64,000 nt of DNA from Verrucomicrobiia bacterium (GTDB lineage Bacteria > Verrucomicrobiota > Verrucomicrobiia > Palsa-1439): contig JBEKUF010000001.1 of the NCBI GenBank assembly GCA_049515295.1, positions 3,625-67,624 on the forward strand, in the 5' to 3' direction. A program made the translations under genes and the position numbers. Shown one piece after another: positions 6,113 through 60,630 of this stretch. The stretch's first letter is position 1. Every line of letters starts with the position of its first letter. The notes beneath the pieces are model-generated. The model saw nothing but the letters and a program-made list of their open reading frames with translations. It was not told the DNA's origin and did no database searches.

Positions 6113-6270
6113 GACCGAATCCTATCAAATGCATTTCTCACAGGGAAGCCGAAGCGGAGCGGAGACGCGGCTACGCCGTTCAAATCCCACACGGAAACGT
6201 GCGTGCGTTGTCAGGACATCACACAGTCAACGTGAGCCCGGTAGTCGCCCCTGCCAAACCTTGGAATCGA

Positions 6271-7341
6271 CTACTCGTTCACATTTGGATAACTGCCGAG
6301 GATCTTCACGAACATCGTGTGCTTGGCCAGTTCGGCCAGTGCTTTCTTGACGCGCGCGTCTTCGCAATGTCCAAGCACGTCCACGAAAAAGTAATACTCC
6401 CACGCCTTCTTCTTGCTCGGTCGCGATTCGATCTTGGTCATGTTGATCTTGAACTTCTTGAATGACGCAATCGAATCATGCAACGCGCCGACGCGGTCCT
6501 GCACGCAGAACATCATCGACGTCTTGTCGTTGCCCGTCCGCCCGGGATATTTGCGTCCGATCACGAGGAACCGCGTCACGTTCTCGCTCGAATCCTGGAT
6601 GTTCGGCTCCAGAATCGTCAGCCCGTACATTTCCGCCGCCAGCACGCTCGCCAACGCGCCCGCGTTCGCCTCCTCCTTCGCGATCTGCGCCGCGCGGGTG
6701 CTACTCGAGGTTTCAATCACCTCGACATGTGGCAGGTTCGTCTGCAGCCATTGCCGGCACTGCGCCAGCACCTGCGGAATCGAGTACAGCTTCCGGATCT
6801 GGTCGCGCGGGCAGGCGGCCATCAGGTTGTGGCGAATCCGCAGGACAATCTGCGCGCAAATCTTCAGTTCGCTATCCAGAAACATGTCATAGGTGTGCGT
6901 GACCGCGCCCTCGGTCGAATTCTCAATCGGCACAACGCCGTAATCGGCGCGCCCCTTCGAGACTTCCATGAATACATCCGTGATGCTCGGCAGCGGCTCG
7001 TATTTGAGACTCGACCCGAACTTCTTAATCACCGCCATGTGCGAATACGTGGCTTCAGGCCCGAGATAAGCGATCACCAGCGGTTTCTCGAGCGCCAGCG
7101 ATGCGGACATGACTTCGCGATAGATGGCCCGCAGCGAATCCGCAGGAAGCGGTCCCTCCCCTTTCTCGACTATCCGCCTCAACACCGCGTCTTCGCGGTC
7201 GGGCGCATAGATCTCCTCGCCCGAGGCGTGCTTGATCTTCCCGATCTCGAGCACGAGTTTCGTCCGCTCGTTCAGCAGGCGCACGAGTTTCGCGTCGATC
7301 TCGTCGATCTTATTGCGCTGTTGCTGAAGTTTGTCCTTCAT
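6271..7341 (-). CDS. pheA: bifunctional chorismate mutase / prephenate dehydratase (P-protein)
   Basis: N-terminal CM_2 helix (IDEIDAKLVRLLNERTKLVLEIG), then a PDT domain (IAYLGPEATYSHMA…ESTEGAV) and a C-terminal ACT domain. Confidence 0.85.
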   Translation of the reverse strand: MKDKLQQQRNKIDEIDAKLVRLLNERTKLVLEIGKIKHASGEEIYAPDREDAVLRRIVEKGEGPLPADSLRAIYREVMSASLALEKPLVIAYLGPEATYSHMAVIKKFGSSLKYEPLPSITDVFMEVSKGRADYGVVPIENSTEGAVTHTYDMFLDSELKICAQIVLRIRHNLMAACPRDQIRKLYSIPQVLAQCRQWLQTNLPHVEVIETSSSTRAAQIAKEEANAGALASVLAAEMYGLTILEPNIQDSSENVTRFLVIGRKYPGRTGNDKTSMMFCVQDRVGALHDSIASFKKFKINMTKIESRPSKKKAWEYYFFVDVLGHCEDARVKKALAELAKHTMFVKILGSYPNVNE

Positions 7342-7996
7342 TCGCTTCGGATGCCTCTGGGGTCGTGTTCGCCGCGGCTTCCTTCGCCTTCGCTTCTTCC
7401 GCCTTTTGTTCCGCCGTCTTCAACGCCGCCGCCTGCAAACGCAACTCCGCCGCCTTCGGCATGTCGTCGATGTCGCGGAGGCCGAAATGTTCGAGGAACT
7501 TCTGCGTCGTGCCGTACAACATCGGCCGGCCCGGCGCGTCGCTCTTGCCGACGATGGTAATCAAATCGCGTTCCAACAACGTCTTGATCACGCCGTCCAC
7601 CTCCACCCCGCGAATCGCCGCGATGTCCGCGCGCGAAATCGGTTGCCGCAAGGCGATGATCGCCAGCGTCTCCAACGACGGCGGCGAAAGCCGGTGCGGA
7701 CGCGCTTCATCCAACAGTTTCTTCACCCACGGCGCGCACTCGGACCGCGTCACCAATCGCCACCCGCCGGCGATTTCCACAAGCTGATAACTATGCTGCT
7801 GCAGCTCGCATTCCGCTTTCAATTCATCCAGCGCCGCCACGATCTGCGCCTCGCGCACATTACGGAATGGTTCGGTCGCGCCGGGATTTTCTTCATCGGT
7901 CGCCTCGGCAAAAATGGTGCGGATTTCCTTCGGCGCGAGCGGTCGCTCCGCCGAGAACAGCAGCGCCTCAATGATTTTCTTCAGTTCCAGTGTCAT
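7310..7996 (-). CDS. scpB: segregation and condensation protein B
   Basis: MTLELKKIIEALLFSAERPL… with two winged-helix repeats and an acidic/Lys-rich tail. The tool ORF is extended upstream; the true ATG at 7994-7996 overlaps the scpA stop by 4 nt. Confidence 0.8.
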   Translation of the reverse strand: MTLELKKIIEALLFSAERPLAPKEIRTIFAEATDEENPGATEPFRNVREAQIVAALDELKAECELQQHSYQLVEIAGGWRLVTRSECAPWVKKLLDEARPHRLSPPSLETLAIIALRQPISRADIAAIRGVEVDGVIKTLLERDLITIVGKSDAPGRPMLYGTTQKFLEHFGLRDIDDMPKAAELRLQAAALKTAEQKAEEAKAKEAAANTTPEASEANEGQTSATAQ

Positions 7997-8748
7997 GCCA
8001 CTTTCAATACCCGTATTTCGCCAAACGCTTCGACCTGCAAAACCTTCAACCGCTTCAACCGGATCAATTCCAGCAAGGCCAGAAACGTCACCACCACCTC
8101 GGCCCGCGAACTGGCCGTCGCAAACAGCTCGCTGAATATCATCTCCGATCGGTCCCGCAGAGTATAGAGGATTTCTTCGATTTTGTCGCTGACCGTGAAT
8201 TTCTCCTCCATGATCTCGCGGAAATCCTCGCGGGCGCTGGCCTTCTTCAACACGTCGTTGAACGCGTTGATGAGATCGAAAATACTCACTTCCGCCAGGG
8301 GCACGTCTTTGTCGACCTCGATGCCCGAGGCCGCGCTTCCCCGTGAGAAGATGTTGGCCTGCTGCTCCTCGCGCCGGCCGAGTTGCAATCCCGCGTCCTT
8401 GAACTTCTTGTATTCGACGAGCTGGCGGATGAGTTCCCAGCGCGGGTCCTCGCCCTCCTCCGTCTCGGTGTCGGTGACCTGCTGGTCGACCGGCAGCAAC
8501 ATGCGGCTCTTGATGTACATCAGCGTGGCGGCCATCACGAGAAACTCGCCGGCGACTTCCAGATTGAGCAGTTGCATCAGCGTCAGGTACTCCATGTACT
8601 GGTTGGTGATGCGCTCGATCGGAATATCGTAGATGTCCACCTCCTCCTTCTTGATGAGGTAGAGCAGCAAATCGAGCGGCCCCTCGAACACCGCCAGTTT
8701 GACTTTGTAATCGGATTCCACGGTAAGTGTTTCGACCTTCCCTATCAC
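7993..8748 (-). CDS. scpA: segregation and condensation protein A
   Basis: …KLAVFEGPLDLLLYLIKKEEVDIYDIPI… is the ScpA kleisin N-terminus. GTG start likely. Confidence 0.8.
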   Translation of the reverse strand: MIGKVETLTVESDYKVKLAVFEGPLDLLLYLIKKEEVDIYDIPIERITNQYMEYLTLMQLLNLEVAGEFLVMAATLMYIKSRMLLPVDQQVTDTETEEGEDPRWELIRQLVEYKKFKDAGLQLGRREEQQANIFSRGSAASGIEVDKDVPLAEVSIFDLINAFNDVLKKASAREDFREIMEEKFTVSDKIEEILYTLRDRSEMIFSELFATASSRAEVVVTFLALLELIRLKRLKVLQVEAFGEIRVLKVA

Positions 8749-8825
8749 AAGCCGGCACCCCCCGCAATACGTGATTCAGGATTCCGCCTTGACGGGCTGC
8801 GCGGCGGCCCGTATGCAGTCGGGAC

Positions 8826-9461
8826 ATGGACGCAGCCAGCGTCGTCGCGATGATCGGTAAGGGCGTGCTGCTCGGTCTGGGCGCGGCGGCGCCAATTGGG
8901 CCCGTGAACGTCGAGATCGCACGACGGTCATTGCGCGGTGGATTCCGCGCTGGCTTCCTGCTCGGCTGCGGTGCGGTAACCGTGGACGTCACCTACGCGA
9001 TCCTCACCAGCCTCGGCGTGCGACCGTTGTTGGGTCGGCCCCGAGTGATGGCGGCGCTGGGGATTGCCGGTGCGGCGGTGTTGGTGTACCTGGGCGTGAT
9101 GTGCTTTGTCAGCGCCGCCCGGCAATGGCGCGGCGCCGCCACCAACGGCGACCCGGAGAAGCCAGCCGAGCGGCATTATGTGACCGGCCTGGCGATGACG
9201 AGCCTGAACCCGATGACCTTGGCGTTTTGGTGCGTGGTCGTGCCGGGCATGGTCGGGCAGTGGTCGGCGAACCCGGTCCGCGACCTGCCGTGGGTTTGCG
9301 TCGGCGTGTTTTCCGGAGCGATGTCCTGGGTGATCGCCTTTACCGGCACGATGAGTTGGCTCGGCCGCCGCGGCAAACGCGCCACCTGGCTCATCGCCGA
9401 TCTCGCCGGCGGCGCGATGCTCCTCGCTTTCGCCGCCTACGCCCTATGGCGCGTCCTTTGA
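8826..9461 (+). CDS. LysE/RhtB-family amino-acid exporter
   Basis: Six-TM, about 210 aa, Gly/Ala-rich helices (LGLGAAAPIGPVN…) typical of the LysE translocator family. Confidence 0.7.
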   Translation: MDAASVVAMIGKGVLLGLGAAAPIGPVNVEIARRSLRGGFRAGFLLGCGAVTVDVTYAILTSLGVRPLLGRPRVMAALGIAGAAVLVYLGVMCFVSAARQWRGAATNGDPEKPAERHYVTGLAMTSLNPMTLAFWCVVVPGMVGQWSANPVRDLPWVCVGVFSGAMSWVIAFTGTMSWLGRRGKRATWLIADLAGGAMLLAFAAYALWRVL

Positions 9462-9750
9462 CCGACGTGACGGCAATCTACATCCGACAGCCGTAGCGAG
9501 ACAAAGCGCGGGACGGTCGCCATCGAGCCTCACAACGTCAAGAGTACAGGCCTGGTCATATGTCGTTTCGTGTCATTCAACGACGTTCCCGGCGGTAGCA
9601 ATCTGGTGTTAGAATACCTAAAATTAACTTGTGGACAACATCACAGAGGATAAAGTGACGACAAATGCAACCCAACATCTCGCGATGGTGGCGGGCATAA
9701 GTCATATGGGAAACGTCGGCTAATACAGGTTAGACGAAGGTGCATGCAGC

Positions 9751-10146
9751 ATGAAGAAAATCGACGCCTTAATTCTCGCGTTTGTAATTAGCTCGTGGGC
9801 AAGTTTTGGCGTCGGCGGATTCGCGCGGCAGTTCATCGGTGGTGAAGCGCGTTTTGGCAAGGTCGAGGGGTCGCGTTACTATACGTACAGCCAAGGTAGA
9901 TACACGGAGGTGTCTCGTTGGATGTTCTACCTTAGCAAGGCCCACTCGGCGTACATCGTGATCACCGGGCCCATTTCCGTTGTGTGCGGCCTCGTCTGGA
10001 TGGCGCTGTTCACCCGTCGCACCCCACGCAGGGAGCAGGACGCCCTATTGAAGCAGGCCGCGAAGCGTTATTCGTATGTTAGTTGGGGCGTGCCGACGTT
10101 GTGGGTGCTTGCGTATTTGGTCTGCGCATTTATCCCGAGAGGATGA
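9751..10146 (+). CDS. hypothetical small membrane protein (low-GC islet)
   Basis: ATG ORF of 131 aa with two predicted TM helices in a stretch of visibly lower GC (9480-10150). No recognisable motif. Confidence 0.4.
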   Translation: MKKIDALILAFVISSWASFGVGGFARQFIGGEARFGKVEGSRYYTYSQGRYTEVSRWMFYLSKAHSAYIVITGPISVVCGLVWMALFTRRTPRREQDALLKQAAKRYSYVSWGVPTLWVLAYLVCAFIPRG

Positions 10147-10254
10147 TATTGTGTGGCAATCCGATTGCACGCACAACTTAGCCGTGATGATAGCAGTTGG
10201 GGTCAGACCTGCATTCGCAATAGCTTCGCTGACGCCGATACTTCTGAGCGTAGT

Positions 10255-10320
10255 AAACGTCGAGTCCGCCGCAGCCGAGCCTTCCAGACGCGACCATCCT
10301 GTGTCCCGGTCGCAAACACC
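10255..10320. repeat. REP-like element family A, copy 3
   Basis: cgagtccgccgcagccgagccttccagacgcgaccatcctgtgtcccggtcgcaaacacc, located between the low-GC ORF and trpS. Confidence 0.55.
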
Positions 10321-10323
10321 GCC

Positions 10324-11289
10324 CTACCGCAACCCGACCGCTTTCCTGACCTTCCCCATCGTCTCGTCGGCCACGGCGTTGGCGCGCTCCGCGCCCTTGC
10401 GTAACACCTCGTGCACGTAATCGAGGTTCTTCACGAGTTCCTCCCGCTTCTGGCGAAGCGGCGCAAAGTAATCCATCAACGCCGCGAGCAATTCCTTCTT
10501 GGCCTCGCCGTAGCCGAAGCCGCCCGCGGCCAGCTTCGCCTGCAATTCATTGGCTTTGTCCGGCGTTGCGACCAACTTGTAGAGCTGCAACGGGATATTC
10601 TTATCGAGGTCCGCTTTCGGCGCTTCCACGGGCTGCGAGTCGGTCACAATGCTCATGATTTTCTTGCGGGCCGCTTTCTCGTCACCGAAAATCTCGATGG
10701 TGTTATTGTAGCTTTTCGACATCTTGCGTCCGTCAATTCCCGGCAACGTGGCGACGTCCGGCTTGATATCGGCCTGGGGAATTACGAATACCTCGCCGTA
10801 TTGGCGATTGAACGTTCCCGCAATGTCGCGCGTCATCTCCACGTGCTGCTTCTGATCTTTGCCAACGGGAACCCGTTCGCCCTGCACGATCAGGATGTCC
10901 GCCGCCATCAACACGGGATAGGTGAACAGGCCCGCATTGGGCTTCAGCCCCTGGGCAATCTTGTCCTTGTAGCTGTGCGCGTTCTCCAGCATCGGCACGG
11001 GCGTCACACTGGAAAGGATCCAGGTCAACTCGGTCACCTGCGGCACATCGCTTTGCCGGTAGAACACCGTGCGGCTCGGATCGAGACCGCAGGCGAGGAA
11101 ATCGAGCGCGACATCCTGGACGTTCGCGCGTAACTCGTCAGGGCTGGAAATCGATGTCAGCGCATGGTAGTCCGCGATGAAATAGAACGCCTCGCCCTTC
11201 TGCGCCAGTTCGAGCGCGGGGCGCATCATGCCGAAGTAGTTGCCAATGTGCAACTTGCCGCTAGGCTGGATTCCAGAAAGAATTCGCAT
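10324..11289 (-). CDS. trpS: tryptophan--tRNA ligase
   Basis: Class-I aaRS signatures: HIGN(Y) at the N-terminus and KMSKS. Length 321 aa. Confidence 0.9.
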   Translation of the reverse strand: MRILSGIQPSGKLHIGNYFGMMRPALELAQKGEAFYFIADYHALTSISSPDELRANVQDVALDFLACGLDPSRTVFYRQSDVPQVTELTWILSSVTPVPMLENAHSYKDKIAQGLKPNAGLFTYPVLMAADILIVQGERVPVGKDQKQHVEMTRDIAGTFNRQYGEVFVIPQADIKPDVATLPGIDGRKMSKSYNNTIEIFGDEKAARKKIMSIVTDSQPVEAPKADLDKNIPLQLYKLVATPDKANELQAKLAAGGFGYGEAKKELLAALMDYFAPLRQKREELVKNLDYVHEVLRKGAERANAVADETMGKVRKAVGLR

Positions 11290-48484: not shown

Positions 48485-51400
48485 CTACTTCGCCAACGCC
48501 GTTATTCGCACCGTGTCTTGCTGCGCTGTGTCGCTGACCGATGTGAATGTCAATGTGAAGGTCGCCTGGGTCCCCTTCTTCACGAGGGTCTTGTCCGCGA
48601 ACACTTCCGCTCGAATCATCGTCGAATCCCCCGTGACCGCCCCCGTTTCCATCGCAGCGGTTTCATAGGTTCCCGCCTGGACCGCAGTTGTTATATCCAT
48701 GCTTTCGGACGGGTTCGCGCCAATGTAGTAATTCACCGTCCAGCCCGAGCCCCCGCTGACTTGCGTACTCTGCACTGTGAACTGGTCGGGCCCTGAACCG
48801 TCGTTCTCCACAGCCACATAGTACCTCACGCCATGTCTGCCCTTCTCAATAGCCTTCTGAATAGCAGTGGGCGTCTGCAGATTGATATTTTGAACAATTT
48901 CCTGTCCGACGCCGGTCGTGTTGATGACGCCAAAGCCCACGAACTTCTTCAAATTACTAAACGACTTGCTAATCGCGGCATCCGGCTGACTGAGCGCTCC
49001 CATGCCGCTCAGGGACACCAGTTGGGGCGGCAGAATATTGTTGCTGCTGATAATGGACAAAGTGGCCGACCGCAGCCCTCCAGCCGTGGGAGCAAACTTC
49101 AGACTAACCACGCAGGTGGCGCCGCTTGAAATCGTCGTGCATGGCGTGGAAACAACAAGGAAATCACCCGTATTTCCCGCCGTGGTGGCAATGTTGCTGA
49201 TCACCAGCGGAGCGGTTCCGCAATTCGTGATCGTCACGCTCTGCACCGATCCGGTGACATTCACGGCGACACTGCCAAAGTCTATCGAACTGCTGCTGAG
49301 GCAGATGGCGGGCGCAGGCGCGACGCCGACGCCCTGCAGTGTCACCGTGGTCGGACTGCCCGCCGCGTCATCCGCGATGACAAGATTCGCGTGAAAAGCC
49401 CCTGCGACCGTTGGAGCAAACGCCACGTTCATCGTGCAAGTGCCCTCAACAGAAATGGGCGAGTTCGTACAAAGCGTCGCCACTGAGAAATTCGCCGACC
49501 CCGCTCCGCTGATCGTCACACCGGAAACGGTCAGCGGGATCGAACCGCAATTCGTGAGGGTAACGCTCTGCACGCTGCCGGTTGTCCCGATCACTTGGTT
49601 GGAGAAGGTAATCGACGTGCCGGTACTCAGGCACACCAGTGGAGCCGGTGCCGTCGCGTAGCCGGTCAAGGGGATGCTGCGCGGACTGCCGGTCTGGTTG
49701 TCCGTAAACACCAAATTCGCCACCAACGTCCCCACATCGTTGGTCACCGGTGAAAATGCCACAGTCACGAAGCAATCGGCCCCCGGACCCACGCGTCCGC
49801 CCGTACAGCCGTCATTAACAACCGTGAAGTCAGCCGCGTTCGACCCAGTGATCGACACGCTTTGGATGCTTGCCCCGACAGTCGTACCGTTCATATAGGT
49901 GACGACCTGTTGGGTGCTGACGGTGCCGGCAACCTGGCTGCCGAACGTCAAACTCGTGGGAGAAATCGTGATCGGCACCGTGCCTGGTGGCACGTTCACG
50001 TTGAGCACCATGGTCCCGCCGTCGCCGTCGTTTTGCGGCTCGACCACGATATAATAATCGTTTGACCCATCCGCCGTGAAGTTGACCTGGGCCGGCACGC
50101 TATTGGTGGATACGACCTCCGTCAGCGCCCCACAGTCGCCACGCACATTGAGCGCCTCCGGAAGCACCTTCACTTCCCAGACTGACAATAGCGGGGGCCC
50201 GCCGGAAAACGAACTGCCAAGCGTGCTAATGGTGAACACGGCACCGGGAGTCGGCAATGCAATCTTGAAGAATTCGTCGGCACCACCACGCCCCGCCGTG
50301 GGACTGGGCTGCACGTTTCGGTAGACCGCCTTCGTGAGATTGTTCGTGAACGCAAACGGGAATTGCGTGACGGGCATGGCGGTCTGGCAGGCGTTGTTGG
50401 TCGCCAGATTCGGAACGTCGGACAGCGTATTGGTCGCCGCGTTGTAAATGACCAGGGCAAAATCCTGATTGAGGGTGTTGGACCCGCCCGGCGTCGGCTC
50501 GCCCACATTCGGCACGCCCTGGCCCGCAATATTCGCGGCGCGCACGATGACCTGGAACGGGGCACCGGACGTCACTCCGGGAATGCCGTTGAGCAGTGTG
50601 GACGGATTCAAGAACACACTCTGCAGGTTGTTGATGGTGTCGATTCGGGAATTGGCTGTCGACACGTTCTCGAAAAACTGGTTGCCATTGTAGATGGCGG
50701 CATTCGAGCCGGCTCCGAGGGTCACCTGCAAATTAAGGTCGTTGACGAGTTGATTGCTGGCCGAAGCCGCCGGGTTGCCGGGTGGGTCGAGCCACACCAG
50801 CGTCACGCGGAACGGTAAGCCGTTGCTGGCGATCCGGCCGGTGACTTCGTAAGACTGCCCCGACTGGCTGAAGTACGTCTGCTGCGGCGCGGGATTCGTG
50901 GCGATGAGGGGCGTGTCAATCGCTCGCGGGGAACTCTCATCCCGAATCGCCCGAGGCACCCCGTCAAACATCGTGGCCAAATCCAGTTCGCCCATGCCCT
51001 GGGCAATGGAGGGCAGGGTGTCCAGTGTTCCGGGATACTGAGGACTTTGAATCGGCATATATCGGGCTGCGTTGCACAGGTAGGCCTTGGCCATGGCCGG
51101 GCTGGGCTGCAGCAATGCGCTGCCGAGTTCGTTCGTCAGTCGATGCTGGAAATACCACCACAGAAGCTGGATCGCCCCGGAAACCTCCGGTGCCGCATAA
51201 CTGCTGCCGGAATCGCAGTCGTACTCCCCGCCTATGGGACTTGGAAAACTGTCGGGAAACGACGCACTAGTATTGGTGAAACAAGCGTCAAAGAGCTTGG
51301 GCGGACTACAGTAAAGATTCGTCTCCGAACAGGAAAACACCGCCCCGCCGCCAAGAACCCCATTAGGGTCCTCGTTTATTACAGGTATGATTCCAAGCAC

Positions 51401-53533
51401 GGGATCGATTGCCACCGCCAGCAATGACTTTGCCGCCCAAACCGAGGTGGCCGGCGCCACTATCTCGGGCTTGATCCGCCCCTCCAACGTTGGCCCGAAC
51501 TCTGAAAGGTCATACATCTCCAGCGAGTCAGTCGCTTGATCGTCACAGGCGCTGCCATCCAGGCGCACGCTCTGGGAAGAACAAACAGTGATGACGTTCT
51601 TCGCGGTGCCCGGAGAGGTAATTCGGATGTCTCCGATCCCGCCGGTGCCCGGTATCACGCCGACATCGCTGCGAATCGAGAGGCCCGCAAACACGATGAT
51701 AAACTCCTGATTCAAGGGGAATGGAGTGGGAACATTGTTCGAATCTCCCACCAGCAATGCATCGCGAACGCCCGTGTCATAGATTTGAGCGTCAAGATCA
51801 TACCTGCCGCCGTTGTCGCCGGTGGAACTCATTTCTTCGCCCCAGCTATCGTTCTGAATACGCGCCCCGAACGTATACGCATGGAAGAAGAGCGTCGGAT
51901 AGAAACCCTCCATGCACGGCAGAGTGGGTTGAGGATTGGGCAGCAGACGCGCATGGGGCGGCGTGCCAGTGGTGTCCGCCGCCTGGTGCCAGATGCGCGA
52001 GCTGCCGATCAAGCCGAACGGGGAAACGCCAAGCCCCAGTTGGAACCCGCTCGGATCCTGGTAGACGAAGCTAACCACCTGCGTGACAATCACCTCTGTC
52101 AGGAGATCCACTGTGAAAAACGGGATTCCAGGACCTGAGCAGTTATAAGTCTCATTTGTGGTGAGCTCACACGGACTCGTTGGGAAAGTAATGGTGATGG
52201 ATCCGCCGCCGGCACTCAGACACAGCCCGTTGTAACCGAACGTCTGCGTTACGATCGTCGAATAAATGGACAACTGATCAAGAACGTTCGTCCGTTGGTC
52301 GAATCCGACAATTACGGAAGCCACCCGTGTGCCGTGGTCGTAAAAATCTTCCGTCCCGATGAAATTGAGGCTGAGTGGCGAGCATCCCGAATCTACCGTG
52401 GAACCGTCGAAGTAACCATTCTGGCCGGGCTCCATATAGGCCACGCGACCGCGCAACGAGGGCTGCACCACGGGGTCGCCTACGTCAAGACCGGTGTCCG
52501 CGACGTCGACAATCGGGTAGTTGGTTGGTTCCAGAAAAGATGGCAATCCACCACCGACCGTGTTGGTCAGGAAATCGATGTAGTTGGTGAACAGGGCCGT
52601 TACGCCGCCCAGGTAATTCGTGAAGAACCTGGCGCCCCCGGTCGAATTGGTCGGCCCGAAGCCGGGTTGGCTGGAGGTCTGCTCGGCGAGAAGGAGGTCC
52701 TGGACTTCATCCAGCAAAATCTTTCGCTCCACGCTCTCAATCCACAGTACGCCTTCCAGCCGGGCAATGCGGGGAATGTCCGAAAACGGCACGGTCATTC
52801 GCGCGACCTTTCTGTCGGCGGCATGGTAGCCGGATTGTATCAGCCCAAACTTCTTGAGCGCAGCCATGGTTTGCTCCGCCGCCGATCCTCCCGCCATCGC
52901 GATCTGTACGTCGACCAACGACTGGCCATTCTCCTTGATGGCATTCAACAGTCCCCGCCCGATCTTGTAGTACGGGTGGTAGGAACCGATCCACTGAATT
53001 GGGCTGTCGGCGCCCTGCCCGCTGCGCAGTTCGCTCTCCGCCACCTCGTCGACCAGAACCAGATAAGCGTTATTCGGTACATACGACACGACTTGCGCCC
53101 CCTTGGACGTGATCAACCGCAGCCATTCCGGGGTGATGGGGCCACGAAATTGCACCAGCCGTAAGCGCTCGCCCTTGCCCTCCGCTTGCCGATACTGCGG
53201 CGGAACCGGGGGCTCACCAACGCTGGTGTCAAAGGATGCAGAGCCCAGCTCGATGCGATTGAACCGGTTATTCACTGCGGCCCGCGCGCCGTACAGGTGC
53301 GTCAACTCGTCTACTTGCGCATCCGTCGCTTCCACCAACCAGTAGGAACCGTAATTACGAACCCGGGTGAATCCCCGCTGTCGCAACTGGTCAAAGGTCT
53401 CGTCGCCAGTGGGGTAAATGATCACCTTGTTGTTGCTGGGCGGTAACGTGGGCGTAGCGTGGCTGTGCACCCCCATGAAAATAAGGCCCGCCAAAACAAC
53501 CAGTACGCACCACCTGCTTACGGAGAATTTCAT
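48485..53533 (-). CDS. giant secreted subtilase (S8 peptidase) with more than 10 C-terminal Ig-like/choice-of-anchor-type repeats (1682 aa)
   Basis: Signal peptide. D (…VADTGLDVGD…), H (…DHGTRVASV…) and S (…GSSYAAPEVSGA…) triad of the S8 family. The C-terminal half is about 100-aa repeats of …(T)NCG…PL.VS…FS…C…I..G.C.(V)..F.PT..G…A.L.I. Confidence 0.8.
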   Translation of the reverse strand: MKFSVSRWCVLVVLAGLIFMGVHSHATPTLPPSNNKVIIYPTGDETFDQLRQRGFTRVRNYGSYWLVEATDAQVDELTHLYGARAAVNNRFNRIELGSASFDTSVGEPPVPPQYRQAEGKGERLRLVQFRGPITPEWLRLITSKGAQVVSYVPNNAYLVLVDEVAESELRSGQGADSPIQWIGSYHPYYKIGRGLLNAIKENGQSLVDVQIAMAGGSAAEQTMAALKKFGLIQSGYHAADRKVARMTVPFSDIPRIARLEGVLWIESVERKILLDEVQDLLLAEQTSSQPGFGPTNSTGGARFFTNYLGGVTALFTNYIDFLTNTVGGGLPSFLEPTNYPIVDVADTGLDVGDPVVQPSLRGRVAYMEPGQNGYFDGSTVDSGCSPLSLNFIGTEDFYDHGTRVASVIVGFDQRTNVLDQLSIYSTIVTQTFGYNGLCLSAGGGSITITFPTSPCELTTNETYNCSGPGIPFFTVDLLTEVIVTQVVSFVYQDPSGFQLGLGVSPFGLIGSSRIWHQAADTTGTPPHARLLPNPQPTLPCMEGFYPTLFFHAYTFGARIQNDSWGEEMSSTGDNGGRYDLDAQIYDTGVRDALLVGDSNNVPTPFPLNQEFIIVFAGLSIRSDVGVIPGTGGIGDIRITSPGTAKNVITVCSSQSVRLDGSACDDQATDSLEMYDLSEFGPTLEGRIKPEIVAPATSVWAAKSLLAVAIDPVLGIIPVINEDPNGVLGGGAVFSCSETNLYCSPPKLFDACFTNTSASFPDSFPSPIGGEYDCDSGSSYAAPEVSGAIQLLWWYFQHRLTNELGSALLQPSPAMAKAYLCNAARYMPIQSPQYPGTLDTLPSIAQGMGELDLATMFDGVPRAIRDESSPRAIDTPLIATNPAPQQTYFSQSGQSYEVTGRIASNGLPFRVTLVWLDPPGNPAASASNQLVNDLNLQVTLGAGSNAAIYNGNQFFENVSTANSRIDTINNLQSVFLNPSTLLNGIPGVTSGAPFQVIVRAANIAGQGVPNVGEPTPGGSNTLNQDFALVIYNAATNTLSDVPNLATNNACQTAMPVTQFPFAFTNNLTKAVYRNVQPSPTAGRGGADEFFKIALPTPGAVFTISTLGSSFSGGPPLLSVWEVKVLPEALNVRGDCGALTEVVSTNSVPAQVNFTADGSNDYYIVVEPQNDGDGGTMVLNVNVPPGTVPITISPTSLTFGSQVAGTVSTQQVVTYMNGTTVGASIQSVSITGSNAADFTVVNDGCTGGRVGPGADCFVTVAFSPVTNDVGTLVANLVFTDNQTGSPRSIPLTGYATAPAPLVCLSTGTSITFSNQVIGTTGSVQSVTLTNCGSIPLTVSGVTISGAGSANFSVATLCTNSPISVEGTCTMNVAFAPTVAGAFHANLVIADDAAGSPTTVTLQGVGVAPAPAICLSSSSIDFGSVAVNVTGSVQSVTITNCGTAPLVISNIATTAGNTGDFLVVSTPCTTISSGATCVVSLKFAPTAGGLRSATLSIISSNNILPPQLVSLSGMGALSQPDAAISKSFSNLKKFVGFGVINTTGVGQEIVQNINLQTPTAIQKAIEKGRHGVRYYVAVENDGSGPDQFTVQSTQVSGGSGWTVNYYIGANPSESMDITTAVQAGTYETAAMETGAVTGDSTMIRAEVFADKTLVKKGTQATFTLTFTSVSDTAQQDTVRITALAK

Positions 53534-54083: not shown

Positions 54084-55235
54084 TTACCGCGCGCCTTCCA
54101 ACACCGATGTGATGACGCGCGCCGTGGCGTCCCAACTGAACTTCGCGGCGTGCCTGCGCCCGCCCTCACCCAATTGCTGTCGCAACACGGAATCAGCCAG
54201 CAGTCGCCGAAACGCCTCCGCCAGCGCCTCGATGTCACCCTCGGCCACCAGCAATCCCGTCTCCCCGTCCACCACCGCCTCCCCCACGCCGCCGCTGCGA
54301 TAACCGACAACCGGTTTCCCATGAAAGCCGGCCTCAAGGTAGCTGATCCCAAAGCCCTCCACGCTCCTCTTCAACGAGCGGCTTGTCATGGCGCAGATGT
54401 CACACTGGTGATACGTCATGGCGACCGTGTCCGGATTGATCTGCCCCAGATGCTCGAAACCAATCCCCGCCTCCCGACACACCGCCTCGACCTTGCGCAA
54501 GTACAACGCGTCGCCAACGCCCCCGATTTGGTAAATGATTCGCGACCGGAGCTCGTTCGGCAACCGCGCCAGCGCCTGCGCGGTGTCGAGCTGTCCCTTG
54601 CGTGGATGCACCCGGGCCAGGGTCAGGACGCGGACCCGTCCATCCGCGGCCACTTTCCCCGGGCACGGCCGCATCGCCGCCGTACTGCACGCGCAGGGAG
54701 CGATCACAATCCGCCGCGCCAACAACGAAAGGAAACTGTGTTGAATCAGCGATTGCGAGTACCTCGACACGGTGAATACGCATTCGACCCGCGGGAAAAA
54801 GCGCCGCGCCCAAAACCTCCACAACCCGCTGTTTTGGAATCGCAGCACCTCCGAGCCATGAAGCACCGAAAGGATGCGCCGGCATTTCACCCGACCCAAC
54901 GGCACAAGAACCATGAACGCCAGATGCGCCCCGACGCTCGTCAGCACCACCGTCGCCTCCTCCAATTGCTTCCGCCGGGACGACAGTTCAATGGCGAACC
55001 GGACCATGTCCCCGAACCGCAAACTCCCGCCTCCGCGCAGCCGCACCACCGGGAATCGGTCCCCATCGACCGCTCCCAACCCTCCATAATCCGGCGCCCA
55101 GACCTCGACCCCCTGCCCCGCCCGGTGCAGGGCCGCCGCCAGTTCCTCGCTATACGTGGCCACACCGCCACGAAACGGGGTGAATTCGTGCGTGCAGATC
55201 ACGATCTTCGGTTTGGGCTGTGGTGTGTGTGTCAT
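54084..55235 (-). CDS. GT4-family glycosyltransferase
   Basis: GT-B fold with the C-terminal E-x7-E-type region (…ISYLEAGFHGKPVVGYRSGGVGEAVVDGETGLLV…). Confidence 0.75.
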   Translation of the reverse strand: MTHTPQPKPKIVICTHEFTPFRGGVATYSEELAAALHRAGQGVEVWAPDYGGLGAVDGDRFPVVRLRGGGSLRFGDMVRFAIELSSRRKQLEEATVVLTSVGAHLAFMVLVPLGRVKCRRILSVLHGSEVLRFQNSGLWRFWARRFFPRVECVFTVSRYSQSLIQHSFLSLLARRIVIAPCACSTAAMRPCPGKVAADGRVRVLTLARVHPRKGQLDTAQALARLPNELRSRIIYQIGGVGDALYLRKVEAVCREAGIGFEHLGQINPDTVAMTYHQCDICAMTSRSLKRSVEGFGISYLEAGFHGKPVVGYRSGGVGEAVVDGETGLLVAEGDIEALAEAFRRLLADSVLRQQLGEGGRRHAAKFSWDATARVITSVLEGAR

Positions 55236-55370
55236 AGATCGACAACGATCATCTCACCAGACCCGTGCCGCCCTGCCAACCGAAAAATCTGGGCCGGCTT
55301 CCAGACCAACATCATCAGCGGCTTGACCAGCAATTGGCCAAGCCACTATTACGTCGGCTCCGGCAAGTGT
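55022..55370. repeat. segmental duplication, copy A (GT4 5' end, spacer, PEP-CTERM-gene 5' fragment)
   Basis: 55022-55085 is about 88% identical to 57586-57648. 55296-55335 matches 57841-57880 (38/40, encoding FQTNIISG(L/V)TSNW). Spacing is similar in both copies (about 200 nt). Confidence 0.6.
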
Positions 55371-55947
55371 TTTTGTGAAGGAAGCCCCGGCAAGCGGTAA
55401 CGGCGTCGCGGCAACGCAACCGTAGGTCGATTGGCGGACGCGCCGATCACAGCGGTTGCAACTTGCCCGCCGCAGACCCAGCGGATGTTCCGACCAGTAG
55501 GAAGAGCCGACAGCGGCGAACGCATTTGGGTCCGCCCGAGTCAGAAGAATCTCCCGCAACAAAAATGGACCCGGCAAAACCGTTGCAGACTGAACGCCAT
55601 CCCGCGGCGCAATCCTCCGACTTTGGTCATGGGGTCTGGCCGCGGTAGCTCGGGAAAACCAGCAATGCGTATAATCAACCAGTTCTTTGACGACTTGCCG
55701 GTTCCGGGTAAAAGTTGCCATTGAAAAAGTAATCGAATAAGCCGAACTTCGGTTGCACACGATGGTTTCGACCACAGTCTTATTAGGCCTATGAGCAGGG
55801 AACCTGAGATCATTGCGAAATCCAGTTTGGCTCCGAAACGGAATAACACCACTGGCAATTCGACAATCTCTGCTGATCTGCGAAGTCGGGAACTGGAAAG
55901 TGGTAAGACCAGCATTGGGTACTTGTTGGGCATGGAGGCAACACAAA

Positions 55948-57465
55948 ATGAGCGCTACGAAAACAAACGCTGACTGGGGCCGGAACGGCCCACAACTATC
56001 CCAAGCACGGCCGGCTGATGGACCGGGTCTACCGAAACGTTCTGCCGCCGCTCAAGGGCGATCATCGCTTCGACGCCAGTCGCTCGGTCAAGGAGACCGC
56101 TCGCGAAGTGCGGGACGCGGTCATGCACTTCCATTGCTTTTGCTCCTTCTGTGTGGCTGTGCCGCAACTCCGCCGACGCCCGCACCGACCGGTTCCGGCG
56201 TTTCGTGGCTGATGTGTTCCGGCGCCGGTGGCTTCTACAGCAACGGCGTGTGCTCGGCGGTGCCAACGACCCAAATCATCAACCGTGTCTCCCTGTGGCA
56301 ACCCGTATGGATGCACTTCGGTATTCCTATCCGTATCTGCTGCCCTAGTCCGGGAACTTGCGACTGGTCCTACGTGGACGCCGTCATCGCCAGCAACCGG
56401 ATCTGGCAGGCCCCGTACGAGACGAAGGTCAAGGCCTACATGGACTGGGGGTCCTACGTGACGCTGAACTACCGCAACGGCATCGCTATCTACAGCACCA
56501 ACACGACCTACGACATCATGCCACTGTGGTTCTACAATCTTGCCCGGAGACCCCAAGATCTGTCCGGCGGCGCCATGGCCGGCGCTGAACTCTTCGACGC
56601 GCAGGTGCCGGCTGCTTCCCGGATCGTCAGCAACCTGCTCGTCCACGAAGCCGGGAGGATTTCCGTTCTGGGACTCACGTGGGAACCAGATTGGGGAACC
56701 AACTACGCCATTCCTCTTGCGATGGTTGCCAGTTCCGTAGTGAACGTGGCGAGGTCCACCGGAGTTTCCCTGGCCATGGGTGAATTTGGCCAACCAGTCT
56801 ATGGAGTGTTCACTAGTTACTGCGGCTACTACAACGGCTCAAACTGGTATGACGCCATCGTCTGGCACGACGATCATTGGATTTCGTGGCCTCCGGATCG
56901 CCGGGCGGGCCCCAACAGTCCCCCCAACCTGCGGTATGACCAACTGTTCGACCGACTGGCATCGCTGGGCAAAATGATGATGCAGGACTACATGGAGTTT
57001 TTCTACTGCTGTGACCCAACGGAGGACGCCCTCTACGCCGACCGCATCGTCAAGGGCATCTTGATGATGCGAAAATCCGGTGTGGCAGTTATTGCGCCCA
57101 ACGCCTATCCCTACGCCTCGACTTGCGCCCCCGACAATGTACTCAGCAACAACTTCGGCGGGGCCTACACGGGATACGTGAACAACGCCATGACGGCGTC
57201 CGGCGTGGCCATTTCCAATCTGCTTTCGCTAATCGGCAACAGCGCCTGCTCGACCTCGTCAGTGCACTACCCATACTACTGCTATCAATTTGGGTCGAAT
57301 ACCTTTGCCTGGATCGCGGAGGGGTATCCATCGGAAGCCATGACGCTTTCGGGCTGGGCGTCCGGACCGACCTACGTCCGAGATGCCACTGCGGCCCCAA
57401 CCAATGCGCTGGGCAACAGCCCGATTGTGCTTTCCGGTACAGGCGAAATAAATACAGGACGGTGA
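55948..57465 (+). CDS. hypothetical secreted lipoprotein (Cys/Tyr/Trp-rich, about 505 aa)
   Basis: Lipobox LLLLLLCGCAATP after an unusually long basic N-region. No recognisable catalytic motif. Upstream 550 nt is low GC. Confidence 0.5.
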   Translation: MSATKTNADWGRNGPQLSQARPADGPGLPKRSAAAQGRSSLRRQSLGQGDRSRSAGRGHALPLLLLLLCGCAATPPTPAPTGSGVSWLMCSGAGGFYSNGVCSAVPTTQIINRVSLWQPVWMHFGIPIRICCPSPGTCDWSYVDAVIASNRIWQAPYETKVKAYMDWGSYVTLNYRNGIAIYSTNTTYDIMPLWFYNLARRPQDLSGGAMAGAELFDAQVPAASRIVSNLLVHEAGRISVLGLTWEPDWGTNYAIPLAMVASSVVNVARSTGVSLAMGEFGQPVYGVFTSYCGYYNGSNWYDAIVWHDDHWISWPPDRRAGPNSPPNLRYDQLFDRLASLGKMMMQDYMEFFYCCDPTEDALYADRIVKGILMMRKSGVAVIAPNAYPYASTCAPDNVLSNNFGGAYTGYVNNAMTASGVAISNLLSLIGNSACSTSSVHYPYYCYQFGSNTFAWIAEGYPSEAMTLSGWASGPTYVRDATAAPTNALGNSPIVLSGTGEINTGR

Positions 57466-57585
57466 TGGACAGCGGAAGCCCCAGCCAACCAGCGCTCAAA
57501 AATAATTACCGACGAGCGAGCCAGGGAAGACGGTCACATCTGGGCGGAGTGATTGTTCAACCGCCCAATCCACTGGACAGACACA

Positions 57586-57920
57586 ACTCCCGCCCCGCGC
57601 AGCCGCACCACCGGGAATCCGAACCCATCCGCCGCTCCCAAATTGTGAATGTTTTCACTTGGAATCCTGTCGGGACGGGAGCATACTCTTTTCCTGCCGG
57701 CTAGGGTAACTGTCACCACGCAGGTCTGGACACCACCAGACAAGAGGAACGCATGAAGGGATTGCGACGCCGCTATCTGATCGTGGGAATTCTCATTGGG
57801 GCCGTAGTCGGCCCCTGCCCCTCCAAGGCCCAGTACACCGCCGACTTCCAAACCAACATCATCAGCGGCGTGACCAGCAATTGGGACGACTTTTACGCCC
57901 TCGGAGCCACTAATTCTGGC
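57586..57920. repeat. segmental duplication, copy B (GT4 fragment remnant plus intact PEP-CTERM gene start)
   Basis: See copy A. Here the GT4 part is a non-coding remnant (minus-strand frame reads …FPVVRLRG… as in the real GT4), while the PEP-CTERM gene is intact. Confidence 0.6.
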
Positions 57921-59573
57921 GATGTGTTGCTCGTAGAGAACGGCGGCGTGCTCGTCGACGGCTTCGCCTCTATTGGGTCTCAAGCCGGAGCAAATAACAA
58001 TGTCGCAATTATCTCCGATCCAGGATCCATCTGGTCGAACGGCAGCTTTCTGAATATCGGAGAGTCGGGTTCGGGCAACGAGTTGTTCATCACTGACGGA
58101 GCTGCCGTTAATGACCAGTATGGGTACGTGGGCTCCAATGCTAGCAGCAGCAACAACACAGCGGTGGTCGACGGTAGTCGCTCAGTCTGGAATAACACGC
58201 AGGAATTCACTTTCGGCTGGTTCGGGTCGGGAAACAGATTGATTGTCACCAACGGCGGCGCGATCTATGGCTGGGATTGCTACTTGGGCGGGGGAAACAC
58301 GAGCGTCGGCAACACCGTTTCAGTAAGCGGGAGCGGGTCGACCGTGGGTGCAAGCAGTAACCTTTATATTGGCTATGTAAGCGCTGGTAATCGAGTCACC
58401 ATCAGTGACGGCGGCTTGGTCTTCGACGCAAACGGTTACGTAGGCACTTCCAGCAACAACTTCGTCGTGGTCACGGGCAGCGGCTCGGTGTGGAGCAACC
58501 GCGCCGATCTTACTATCGGGACATCTGAGTATATGCCCGGCAATCAACTAACCATCACCAACGGCGGAGCCGTCTATGACAACAACGGGTCTGTAGACGG
58601 GAGCCCGTACCCGACCAGCACCGTGGTGTCGGTCAGCGGCAATGGCGCCCGTTGGTGCAATTCCGGCAATCTCTCCGTCGGCGGCGGCGAGGGGCTGGGG
58701 AATTGTGTTACGATTGGCGAAGGCGGTTCCGTAGTGGCCAGCAACTCGTATGTCTCCCCTGTAACGGGATCGACTTCATACAATGGGATCACCGTCTGCG
58801 GCGGTGCCTTGTTTGTGACCAACGCTCTTCATACTGGCACGTATCAGAACACAGGCCTGCTCACTCTCAACAGCGGAACCCTCACCGTCGATAGCCTGAT
58901 CTCCACTCAATCATCACACATCGTCTTCAGTGGCGGTGTATTAAACGCTAAGAGTTCGGCCATCAGCACGCTTGCCGTCGGCAACGGCACGAATGTGGCA
59001 ATCTTCAATCTTGCCCCCGGTGGGTCAGGGATCCACTGGTTTACCTACCAGGGTTTGAGTATCTCCAGCAACGCCATGCTGACGGGCGGCGGCACGATCA
59101 TTGGCCGAACCACCGTCCAAGCGGGCGGCACGCTCGTCCCCGGTGGTGGTGCAGGCAGCATCGCCTTCAGCAGCAATCTGACGCTTGCGGCCGGATCAAC
59201 TCTCGCCATCACCATCGACGGTCCCGGAGCAGGTCAATACAGCCAGATCACCGGCTTGGGTACGATCAGCGTCAGCAACTGTGTCCTGAGCGTATCGCTC
59301 GGCTATACGCCATCACCGGGCGACTCGTTCACGATCATCAGCAATCTCACTTCGATGGCGGTGCTCGGGACCTTCGTGGATACAGCGGGCGCCGCGCTGC
59401 CCAACGGCGCCGACTTCGTCGTGGACAACACAACATTCCAGATTGATTACAGCGCTAACTGCGATGGCATGGATGTAGCCCTAACCGCGCTGATTCCCGA
59501 GCCGTCCTCGCTTTTGCTGACCGCCCTCGGCGCGGTCGCCCTGTGCGCGCTTCTGAGGCGTCGACGGCATTGA
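57753..59573 (+). CDS. PEP-CTERM protein with autotransporter-associated beta-strand repeats
   Basis: Signal peptide. Conserved N-terminus QYTADFQTNIISGVTSNWDD. Repeated (V/I)TNGG(A/G)(I/V)Y… units. C-terminus IPEPSSLLLTALGAVALCALLRRRRH is a PEP-CTERM signal. Confidence 0.75.
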   Translation: MKGLRRRYLIVGILIGAVVGPCPSKAQYTADFQTNIISGVTSNWDDFYALGATNSGDVLLVENGGVLVDGFASIGSQAGANNNVAIISDPGSIWSNGSFLNIGESGSGNELFITDGAAVNDQYGYVGSNASSSNNTAVVDGSRSVWNNTQEFTFGWFGSGNRLIVTNGGAIYGWDCYLGGGNTSVGNTVSVSGSGSTVGASSNLYIGYVSAGNRVTISDGGLVFDANGYVGTSSNNFVVVTGSGSVWSNRADLTIGTSEYMPGNQLTITNGGAVYDNNGSVDGSPYPTSTVVSVSGNGARWCNSGNLSVGGGEGLGNCVTIGEGGSVVASNSYVSPVTGSTSYNGITVCGGALFVTNALHTGTYQNTGLLTLNSGTLTVDSLISTQSSHIVFSGGVLNAKSSAISTLAVGNGTNVAIFNLAPGGSGIHWFTYQGLSISSNAMLTGGGTIIGRTTVQAGGTLVPGGGAGSIAFSSNLTLAAGSTLAITIDGPGAGQYSQITGLGTISVSNCVLSVSLGYTPSPGDSFTIISNLTSMAVLGTFVDTAGAALPNGADFVVDNTTFQIDYSANCDGMDVALTALIPEPSSLLLTALGAVALCALLRRRRH

Positions 59574-59703
59574 CGACGGCTGCTCCCCGCAGCGTTTCGC
59601 GCCGCCTGATTCTCCGCCGACCGAAAAAATCGCTTTCTCTTTGGCCCCGGGTTTGGTATCAGTCCCCTCGCCAGGAAGGACCAGCACACGCGCGTCGCTT
59701 CAC

Positions 59704-60630
59704 ATGAATATAACGTTGACTGATACCGAAGTGGCCGACCTCAAAGACGGATTGCGCCGATGCAGTCCCAAAACCATCGAAGCCGCCGTTCGCTACCGCG
59801 AAACGGGCGACCCCAACACCATCCCAACCATCGTGTACGGGATTCTGGAGCGCTATCAGCCCTCCACCGCGCCCGTGAAACTCTCCGCGGCCGATGAAAA
59901 CGCCCGGCTCATCGAAGACCTCGGCCTCGATTCGCTGACCTTGCTCGAAATCGTGCTGTCGATTGAGGAGGTCCTCAAGTTGCACATTGAAAATGAGGAG
60001 CTTCGCGAAATCCGTACGATGGGGAACCTGAACAGGTTTCTCCACGCCAAGATTACCGGCGCCGCCACCGGGGCGCCGTCGAAGGTTTATTCGCGCGAAC
60101 AGATTGCGCTCGTGCTCCCGCAACAGCCGCCGTTCATGTTCCTTGACGAAGCGTCGCTGAACGCCGAGACACTCAAGGCCAGCTATACCGTCAAAGGCAA
60201 CGAGTTCTTCCTCGAAGGCCATTTCAAGGACGACCCCGTTTTCCCCGCCTCGATCGTCTTCGAAGCCCTGGGCCAGGCCGCGTGCCTGTGGGTGCTGGAG
60301 AAAGCACCGGCGCAGATCGGCAAGGAGATCAAGTCCAACCACGTCTATTTTGCGTCGATGGACGGCGCGCACTTTTACCAAAAGACCAGGCCGGGGGATA
60401 AACTCGAGTTCGAGTTGAAGCTGGCGCGGCTTCGCGAGCCGCTGGCCGTTTTCGAGGGAACAGTGACCTCGCAGGGGCGGCGTGTGGCCAAGATCGAACG
60501 TCTCGTGCTCGCGTTTGGCGAACAACTTCTTCCCGAAAACCTGTCGTCATCCGAATCGTCCGCGTCCGACGCCCCCGCGCCGACCCCCGTTCCGGTCACG
60601 CCCAACGGCCCGGACGGTGGCCGGTCCTGA
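59704..60630 (+). CDS. fusion of acyl carrier protein and FabZ-type 3-hydroxyacyl-ACP dehydratase (hot-dog)
   Basis: N-terminal 90 aa carry the ACP helix-II motif LIEDLGLDSLTLLEIVLSIEE (pantetheine Ser in DSL). C-terminal part carries …FLEGHFKDDPVFPASIVFEALGQAAC… (His/Glu FabZ signature) and ends in a Ser/Pro-rich tail. Confidence 0.7.
   Translation: MNITLTDTEVADLKDGLRRCSPKTIEAAVRYRETGDPNTIPTIVYGILERYQPSTAPVKLSAADENARLIEDLGLDSLTLLEIVLSIEEVLKLHIENEELREIRTMGNLNRFLHAKITGAATGAPSKVYSREQIALVLPQQPPFMFLDEASLNAETLKASYTVKGNEFFLEGHFKDDPVFPASIVFEALGQAACLWVLEKAPAQIGKEIKSNHVYFASMDGAHFYQKTRPGDKLEFELKLARLREPLAVFEGTVTSQGRRVAKIERLVLAFGEQLLPENLSSSESSASDAPAPTPVPVTPNGPDGGRS

Follow-up and report, generated by a model that had tools for sequence, protein, structure and literature searches.

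Bacteria integrate foreign DNA by illegitimate, including double illegitimate, recombination at microhomologies, a process which may leave small target duplications or deletions, as in the transformation of Acinetobacter and Streptococcus. In SPDIR (short-patch double illegitimate recombination), patches of 3 to ~100 bp are acquired at microhomologies from single strands that are either intragenomic or foreign, at a frequency below 1e-12 in wild-type Acinetobacter baylyi (bioRxiv 10.1101/2023.11.22.568220). Here we describe a locus of this general kind in a 64,000-nt stretch of DNA from a Verrucomicrobiia bacterium (contig JBEKUF010000001.1, the whole of which stretch is called the window). 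A lipoprotein gene and a PEP-CTERM gene lie there between a gene for a GT4 glycosyltransferase and the first gene of a biosynthetic cluster, an acyl carrier protein (ACP)/dehydratase fusion gene followed by ketosynthase (KS) and ketoreductase (KR) genes. Positions 55290-59615 are probably a lineage-specific insertion, made without a transposase, of two independent foreign segments in the divergent spacer between GT4 and the ACP-dehydratase/KS/KR genes. Comparison with relatives dissolves the tidy picture of a cassette between duplications; the real event was larger and messier.

The insertion and its borders

Related loci were fetched with the GT4 protein from species-representative genomes and metagenomes. 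This gave four Verrucomicrobia metagenome-assembled genomes (L008-L011) and eleven metagenome contigs (L054-L065), with GT4 identities of 39-82%; orthologs 60-82% identical occupy the same position in related loci. In all 15 relatives the GT4 gene and the ACP-dehydratase gene are divergent, with about 120-130 nt from one start to the other. A tblastn map of 19 loci placed no lipoprotein or PEP homolog at this locus, within the fetched flanks, in any of the 15. In the case of the closest relative, L008, positions 9949-11150 correspond to window positions 55287-54086 and positions 5588-9954 to window positions 64000-59623. The extra DNA is carried only by contigs that share 98% identity or more with the window. 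In a neighbour-joining tree built from GT4, L008 is the sister of the window, which is nested among lineages with an empty site. The empty site in the relatives, together with this nesting, demonstrates that 55290-59615 is a derived insertion which includes the PEP-CTERM gene. The initial annotation, made from the window alone, had proposed that an ancestral divergent GT4/PEP-CTERM pair was split by incoming DNA. The divergent neighbour of GT4 in the 15 relatives is instead the ACP-dehydratase gene, and the PEP-CTERM gene was itself inserted. The GC content of the insert is lower than that of its flanks.

An imperfect direct repeat of the target, GCCRACCGAAAAA[A]TC, flanks the insert. GCCAA..AAAAAATC occurs once in the spacer of relatives and twice in the window; with one mismatch or none, the 13-mer occurs in the 64 kb only at the two junctions. 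An extended alignment of the repeat (55264-55287 with 59598-59628) has a score that was reached in 8/2000 shuffles. Integration at a microhomology and a larger duplication would each lead one to expect such an imperfect repeat of 13-16 nt just as much as the target-site duplication of a transposon would. It is this short repeat, and not a long duplication as had been supposed, that brackets the inserted DNA.

The possibility of an assembly artefact is excluded, as independent assemblies of six or more metagenome samples contain the structure, with every junction spanned. The junction-spanning contigs are 98.4-100% identical to the window: L004 spans all junctions, while the left one is also spanned by L002, L052 and L066, and the inner and right ones by L005, L006 and L007. 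No strain differences fall inside the repeated blocks described below in L052 (24 differences in 4.7 kb) or L066 (3 in 2.5 kb), numbers too small to be informative about constraint on the blocks. A further strain contig, L053, has 81 mismatches.

The insert is a mosaic. From left to right it consists of a 72-nt relic, 583 nt of non-coding DNA, the lipoprotein gene with its 3' flank, a 58-nt GT4 patch, a PEP cassette of ~1956 nt, and a spacer tail with the target repeat. Segment 1 (55290-57584) comprises the relic, the non-coding stretch and the lipoprotein gene, and segment 2 (57642-~59597) is a complete PEP-CTERM cassette with its own upstream region. The 58-nt GT4 copy separates the two segments, and the direct repeat of 13-16 nt encloses the whole. 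Neither blastn nor tblastx found a match for 55371-55947, 57466-57584, 57642-57752 or 59574-59615, whether in the fetched loci or elsewhere in the window.

Table 1. Coordinates and strands of the features of the locus; positions are those of the window unless a contig is named.
Feature	Position	Strand	Description
GT4 glycosyltransferase gene, resident, intact	54084..55235	-	383 aa; Pfam Glycos_transf_1 1e-27, Glyco_transf_4 7e-12
Block 1A: GT4 codons 53-71 (LGAVDGDRFPVVRLRGGGS)	55022..55079	-	source or partner of the 58-nt patch
GT4-proximal part of ancestral GT4/ACP-dehydratase spacer	55236..55289	.	aligns with uninterrupted spacer of L008-L011 up to A-run
Left copy of target repeat	55275..55289	+	GCCAACCGAAAAA-TC; weaker similarity back to 55264
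Lineage-specific insertion, 4326 nt	55290..59615	+	absent from 15 related loci; nested in empty-site clade
72-nt relic of a TIGR04393-family (PEP-CTERM) paralog	55293..55364	+	AGFQTNIISGLTSNWPSHYYVGSG; contains block 2A (55293-55337); 3 nt from left junction
Non-coding stretch, "leader" of lipoprotein gene	55365..55947	.	583 nt, lower GC (50-56%)
Lipoprotein gene, rare family	55948..57465	+	505 aa; GGAGG 9-13 nt before ATG 55948
Block 1B: non-coding 57-nt copy of resident GT4 codons 53-71	57585..57641	-	1-nt deletion, sharp borders on both sides
Native upstream region of PEP cassette	57642..57752	+	palindrome TGTGA-N6-TCACT at 57644-57659
T5SS/PEP-CTERM-associated repeat protein gene, intact	57753..59573	+	606 aa; block 2B (57840-57884) = codons 30-44
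Right copy of target repeat	59598..59631	+	core GCCGACCGAAAAAATC at 59616-59631; weaker extension from 59598
ACP/FabZ-like dehydratase fusion gene	59704..60630	+	Pfam FabA, PP-binding; NCBIfam FabZ/ACP; first gene of KS-KR cluster
Upstream palindrome in PEP relatives	L047 ~9975-9995; L051 ~9905-9925		

Origin of the two repeated blocks

The initial annotation described a co-linear duplication of ~350 bp on the two sides of the lipoprotein gene. Two non-random direct-repeat blocks were indeed recovered at those places by repeat search, blastn and pattern searches. Block 1 pairs 55022-55079 with 57585-57641 (58 nt, 89.7% identity, one 1-nt indel, E 4e-14), and block 2 pairs 55293-55337 with 57840-57884 (45 nt, 93.3% identity, E 2e-12). 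The core of each block occurs just twice in the window, where shuffled sequence leads one to expect none. The similarity is confined to these two short blocks, and the sequence between them does not align. In Smith-Waterman comparisons the 213 nt and 198 nt that separate the blocks are no more alike than shuffled sequence, and the same is true of the sequence to the left and to the right of both blocks; in each of the three tests the observed score was reached by at least 37/500 shuffles (7%). MAFFT, blastn at word size 7, Smith-Waterman with shuffles, tblastn and a six-frame search with a family hidden Markov model (HMM) detected no homology other than the 58 nt of GT4 and the 72 nt of the PEP family. 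Longer tblastn matches (PEP residues 21-134 and GT4 residues 53-101) proved spurious on inspection.

A segmental duplication would show continuous similarity through the spacer, and only the 58 nt and 45 nt align. It would also leave each copy closest to the other. Block 1B is closest to the resident GT4 gene, and the relic that contains block 2A is not closest to its partner. The apparent 350-bp duplication is one genuine 58-nt copy plus a family-wide N-terminal motif which would be common to any paralog. Conserved 5' motifs of multi-copy families can mimic local duplications.

In the case of block 1B, the copy of the resident GT4 gene is genuine. Block 1B and resident GT4 share the lineage-specific states TTGGGAGCGG and ATTCCCGGTGGTG, as judged against 14 orthologs. 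Block 1B also retains a GGGTT state, as in the closest relative L008, which resident GT4 has lost. The shared derived states, and the retention of GGGTT by block 1B alone of the two, imply that both copies have diverged since the copying. There is no GT4 similarity beyond the borders of block 1B. Homology to the upstream regions of other PEP genes begins exactly at its right border, which identifies block 1B as flanking, resident-derived DNA and not as cargo.

Block 2 has a different origin. Mature proteins of the family begin with A[DN][FY]QTN[IV]ISGVTSNW[PST]G.Y.VG[SN], and the family N-terminal HMM matches the relic at positions 3-26 only (24 residues, E 1e-10), with no extension in any frame. 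The relic lies at the left edge of the insert without a start codon or signal peptide, and, as had been stated, the PEP-like fragment runs into a stop (55398-55400). The same annotation took this fragment for a duplicate of the start of the neighbouring PEP-CTERM gene. Over its 72 nt, the relic agrees with the neighbour at 52 positions and with unrelated family genes at 46-55, so the neighbour is no closer than they are. More than 30 other family members match the relic better than the adjacent gene does. Over the last 27 nt, the neighbour agrees at 10 positions and the class with WPG.YYVG at 12-16. Nine family genes from other assemblies have DNA identities of 80-89% to block 2A and 82-96% to block 2B. 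One of two such genes in L101 (L101a) agrees with block 2B at 43/45 nt, as compared to 42/45 between blocks 2A and 2B; agreement at 43/45 was seen despite a protein identity of just 33%. These comparisons show 55293-55364 to be the relic of another paralog.

The motif is also conserved at synonymous positions. Codon use was compared among ten family genes (window 57840-57884 and 55293-55337; L047, L048, L051, L099, L100, two genes of L101, L103 and L104). At identical residues of the 45-nt motif the same codon was used in 366/498 comparisons (73%); the rate predicted by these amino acids at other places in the gene pairs concerned is 50%. This excess was seen in 41/45 pairs, which are not independent of one another, and part of it could come from stronger codon choice where residues are conserved. 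The motif is the top 15-codon window for synonymous conservation along the gene. We consider it unlikely, but worth stating, that constraint on the 45 nt which encode A[DN]FQTNIISGVTSNW in TIGR04393 PEP-CTERM genes acts on the nucleotides as well as on the protein. If so, the motif might function as an element of the mRNA, or as a recombination handle that the members of a multi-copy surface-protein family share and by which their 5' ends and cassettes are exchanged; the 72-nt relic would then be the footprint of such an exchange.

Genes of the insert and of the resident locus

The gene calls of the initial annotation for GT4, the lipoprotein and the PEP-CTERM protein were correct. The PEP-CTERM gene product matches TIGR04393 over four stretches (5e-29; 100.1 bits against a cut-off of 23), TIGR02595 PEP_CTERM (2e-4; 21.7 bits against 16) and Pfam PEP-CTERM (PF07589, 20.8 bits against 20.7), and has 433 homologs. 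PEP-CTERM proteins in Verrucomicrobia are multi-copy exosortase substrates (PMC4960237). The inserted gene resembles the TIGR04393 family in its signal peptide, N-terminal motif, four TIGR04393 repeat matches and PEP-CTERM tail. Unlike its relatives, it sits in a cluster of glycolipid or fatty-acid type. Its nearest relatives are 51% identical and occupy other genomic contexts, for example next to uvrD.

The PEP cassette brought its own upstream region. Positions 57642-57667 (ATTGTGAATGTTTTCACTTGGAATCC) show homology to the sequence upstream of the PEP relatives that L047 and L051 carry. A palindrome, TGTGA-N6-TCACT (AGTGA-N6-TCACT in L047), is conserved ~95 nt upstream of such relatives, although their loci are unrelated. 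To judge by its form, it looks like a putative operator for a dimeric regulator of the CRP/FNR type.

PEP homologs have conserved "home" positions. In L047 and L051 they lie downstream of genes for Tmemb_14 and UvrD, and in L099, L103 and L104 they lie between a phosphoribosyltransferase gene and coaE-rho. The existence of such positions suggests that the window's copy moved away from one. No conserved pairing of the lipoprotein with a PEP gene, or of GT4 with a PEP gene, was found elsewhere: lipoprotein homologs (L042-L046) and PEP homologs (L047-L051, L099-L104) occur in unrelated contexts.

The lipoprotein gene belongs to a very small family, with six homolog clusters among 5.8e9 proteins and eight representative clusters among 1.84e9; its homologs are 49-54% identical. 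Among the in-frame starts, only ATG 55948 is plausible and still places a signal sequence before the lipobox LLLLLLCGC. The sequence ALPLLLLLLCGC aligns with the LLAGC lipobox of homolog P0004, and other homologs have Sec signal peptides. The precursor (55948-56145) has an unusually long Arg-rich stretch of ~60 residues ahead of the hydrophobic region and lipobox. The gene calls on the Joint Genome Institute contig L004 give two open reading frames (ORFs) in place of this gene, one of 64 aa that is read in another frame and one of 417 aa that lacks a signal peptide. Homolog P0005 (L042-L045) has as its neighbours small hypothetical genes, in which AAA_25, HTH_3 and DUF2513 domains occur, and a ChlI fragment; the region looks like a mobile or variable island.

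None of 13 members of the lipoprotein family has a Pfam or NCBIfam match, and no sequence match was found in the PDB, so that the family belongs to no curated glycoside hydrolase (GH) family. An AlphaFold2 model built from 13 sequences (pLDDT 74, pTM 0.81) has its top Foldseek matches to 5bx9 (PslG), 5jvk (GH39), 9g17 and 4zn2, with E ~1e-12 and TM 0.51-0.57 (0.57 for 5jvk). In this prediction a TIM barrel of the clan GH-A type is joined to a C-terminal beta-sandwich, a combination similar to that of the Psl exopolysaccharide hydrolase PslG and of a GH39 enzyme. Enzymes of clan GH-A have a catalytic acid/base Glu behind strand 4 and a nucleophile Glu behind strand 7. A Glu in WEPD and another in GE[FL]G, at most candidates for these roles, are invariant among six full-length members, but in the model both follow adjacent strands. 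The PslG and GH39-type clan GH-A hydrolases (5bx9, 4zn2, 5jvk) are the best match to the predicted barrel and sandwich. The present protein differs from them in being a lipoprotein of a very small family, with only 9-12% sequence identity.

The resident genes were also assigned. GT4 scores above the cut-offs for both PF13439 (46.1 bits) and PF00534 (97.1 bits). The GT4/ACP-dehydratase spacer contains boxes conserved across L008-L011, namely CATCTCAACAGACC near GT4 and CTTTC.CTTTGG with GGGGTTTGGTATCAGTCCC near the dehydratase gene. In the window these parts are found at 55236-55274 and 59632-59703; the insertion lies between them, at the A-run, and each box stays with its own gene. GT4 thereby keeps 54 nt of its native upstream sequence. 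Adjoining GT4 on the other side (48485-53533, minus strand) is a gene for a 1682-aa secreted subtilase (Peptidase_S8) with several Ig-like domains of the ASH/HYDIN type. It is syntenic in relatives but only ~50% identical, and thus evolves much faster than the neighbouring biosynthetic genes.

Routes of integration and known systems

What is said here of the succession of events, of a 268-bp duplication and of the pathway of recombination is inferred from what survives in the insert. The route that we favour, tentatively and at somewhat under an even chance, is integration of segment 1 with a target duplication of 268 bp, followed by segment 2 overwriting part of the spare copy. Segment 1 would have entered by illegitimate recombination in which the two joins were staggered: on the left it would follow 55289, and on the right it would precede the position equivalent to 55022. 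Such joins would duplicate 268 bp of resident DNA (55022-55289), comprising GT4 codons 71 to 1 and 54 nt upstream, and the spare copy could then be disrupted without harm. Segment 2 would later have landed in this spare copy and replaced ~184 bp of it, with 57585-57641 and 59598-59631 left over. The repeat of 13-16 nt may thus be the outer edge of the duplication, of which 58 nt and ~34 nt would survive in the second copy. On this duplication model the resident-derived pieces (block 1, spacer tail, repeat) stand in their native order as parts of a half-overwritten tandem copy, and the survival of GT4 is accounted for as well.

Several points weigh against this route. The duplication of 268 bp is reconstructed from just 58 and ~34 surviving nucleotides, and past its 13-16 nt the repeat is extended only modestly (the 8/2000 shuffles above, with a 7-nt gap). 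Among the loci found there is no intermediate genome with segment 1 alone or with the duplication alone. No close donor of either segment was found, the nearest homologs being those 51% (PEP) and 49-54% (lipoprotein) identical. The near-equal spacing of the blocks (213 and 198 nt) is left as a coincidence whose estimated probability is low. This spacing is unexplained by the duplication route and by the templated patches considered next alike; a coincidence is favoured by the persistence of relics only in the ~1 kb of non-coding DNA of the insert.

It is possible, though on balance we doubt it, that no duplication of 268 bp ever took place and that the 58-nt GT4 copy and the 72-nt relic are filler, i.e. 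templated patches laid down at the junctions of incoming DNA by a process of the SPDIR or template-switching kind. The flanking repeat would then be microhomology, or a small target duplication, of the main insertion. Both patches are shorter than 100 nt, within the size range of SPDIR patches, and have sharp borders on both sides. They also lie exactly at segment boundaries: the relic begins, at 55293, 3 nt away from the left junction, and 57585-57641 separates segment 1 from segment 2. A single process would account for both. However, SPDIR is extremely rare in wild-type cells and has been described for microindels, not for the junctions of kilobase-sized insertions. Templated filling also gives no account of the resident order of the resident-derived pieces, nor of the apparent extension of the right repeat into the spacer tail. 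Target duplication and templated filling are both forms of transposase-free illegitimate recombination.

This agrees with the part of the initial annotation that stands: an insertion without a transposase carries the lipoprotein gene, with copies of resident DNA on both sides of that gene. Mobile-element signatures are absent. The insert has no terminal inverted repeats, its best end-to-end alignment being at the shuffle mean; no transposase or integrase domain occurs in the ORFs of 42.8-64 kb, and no tRNA or tmRNA gene occurs within 45-64 kb. It is accordingly very unlikely that a mobile element acting in trans was responsible, whether the insert is taken for a cassette of transposon type that made a target-site duplication or for an integrase islet with attachment-site (att) core repeats, even though a direct target repeat does flank the insert. 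That repeat is imperfect and longer than the duplications typical of insertion sequences, and the insert is internally mosaic.

We hold it to be highly improbable that some 350 bp (GT4 5' end, spacer and PEP 5' end) were duplicated around the lipoprotein gene, splitting a GT4/PEP-CTERM pair. The two blocks are co-linear, in the same orientation and similarly spaced (2562 and 2547 nt from start to start), and each piece has one intact and one dead copy. Against this stand the middle of ~200 nt and the outer flanks, which are at the shuffled level, the absence of the PEP gene from the locus in the 15 relatives, and the nature of block 2 as a family motif, with a relic at least as similar to other paralogs as to the neighbour and a PEP upstream region that is native to PEP genes elsewhere.

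Two further explanations are scarcely credible. If the insert were ancestral, relatives could have lost it by precise deletion between the flanking direct repeats; with the site empty in 15/15 relatives (GT4 39-82%) and the window nested inside their clade, this calls for at least 4-5 independent precise losses as compared to one gain, and the GC content of the insert is the lower. Alternatively, selection might have kept the patches for reciprocal antisense pairing, in which a plus-strand transcript upstream of PEP has 58 nt complementary to GT4 mRNA and a minus-strand transcript upstream of GT4 has 45 nt complementary to PEP mRNA, a geometry which the locus permits, the similarity being confined to the two blocks, but there is no Rfam match at E<=1, promoter and terminator scans gave no signal above background, the family motif explains block 2 without selection, and block 1B has an indel and 5 substitutions.

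We therefore return to an insertion of foreign segments by illegitimate recombination. Its interest lies in a record, at base resolution, of how two surface-protein genes came, with no mobile-element machinery, into a conserved biosynthetic locus in an uncultured Verrucomicrobium from peat. Two side results are of some value, namely the very rare lipoprotein family with its predicted PslG-like fold and the unusual synonymous conservation of the PEP-family N-terminal motif.

When compared to SPDIR, the patches are alike in size (58 and 72 nt, within 3 to ~100 bp), in their sharp borders and in the intragenomic source of the GT4 patch. They differ in position, as SPDIR is defined on microindels within a gene and these patches lie at the junctions of a kilobase-scale insertion. 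When compared to foreign-DNA integration by illegitimate recombination, the present case is unlike in that it is deduced from one natural locus and in that the 268-bp target duplication, if real, is larger than usual. It is alike in having no recombinase gene, no inverted repeats and only short, imperfect junction homology, as well as in its mosaic content and in the placement of accessory cargo in an intergenic spacer. The insert thus illustrates, in good resolution, a kind of event that is already known, and is a product of ordinary genome evolution.

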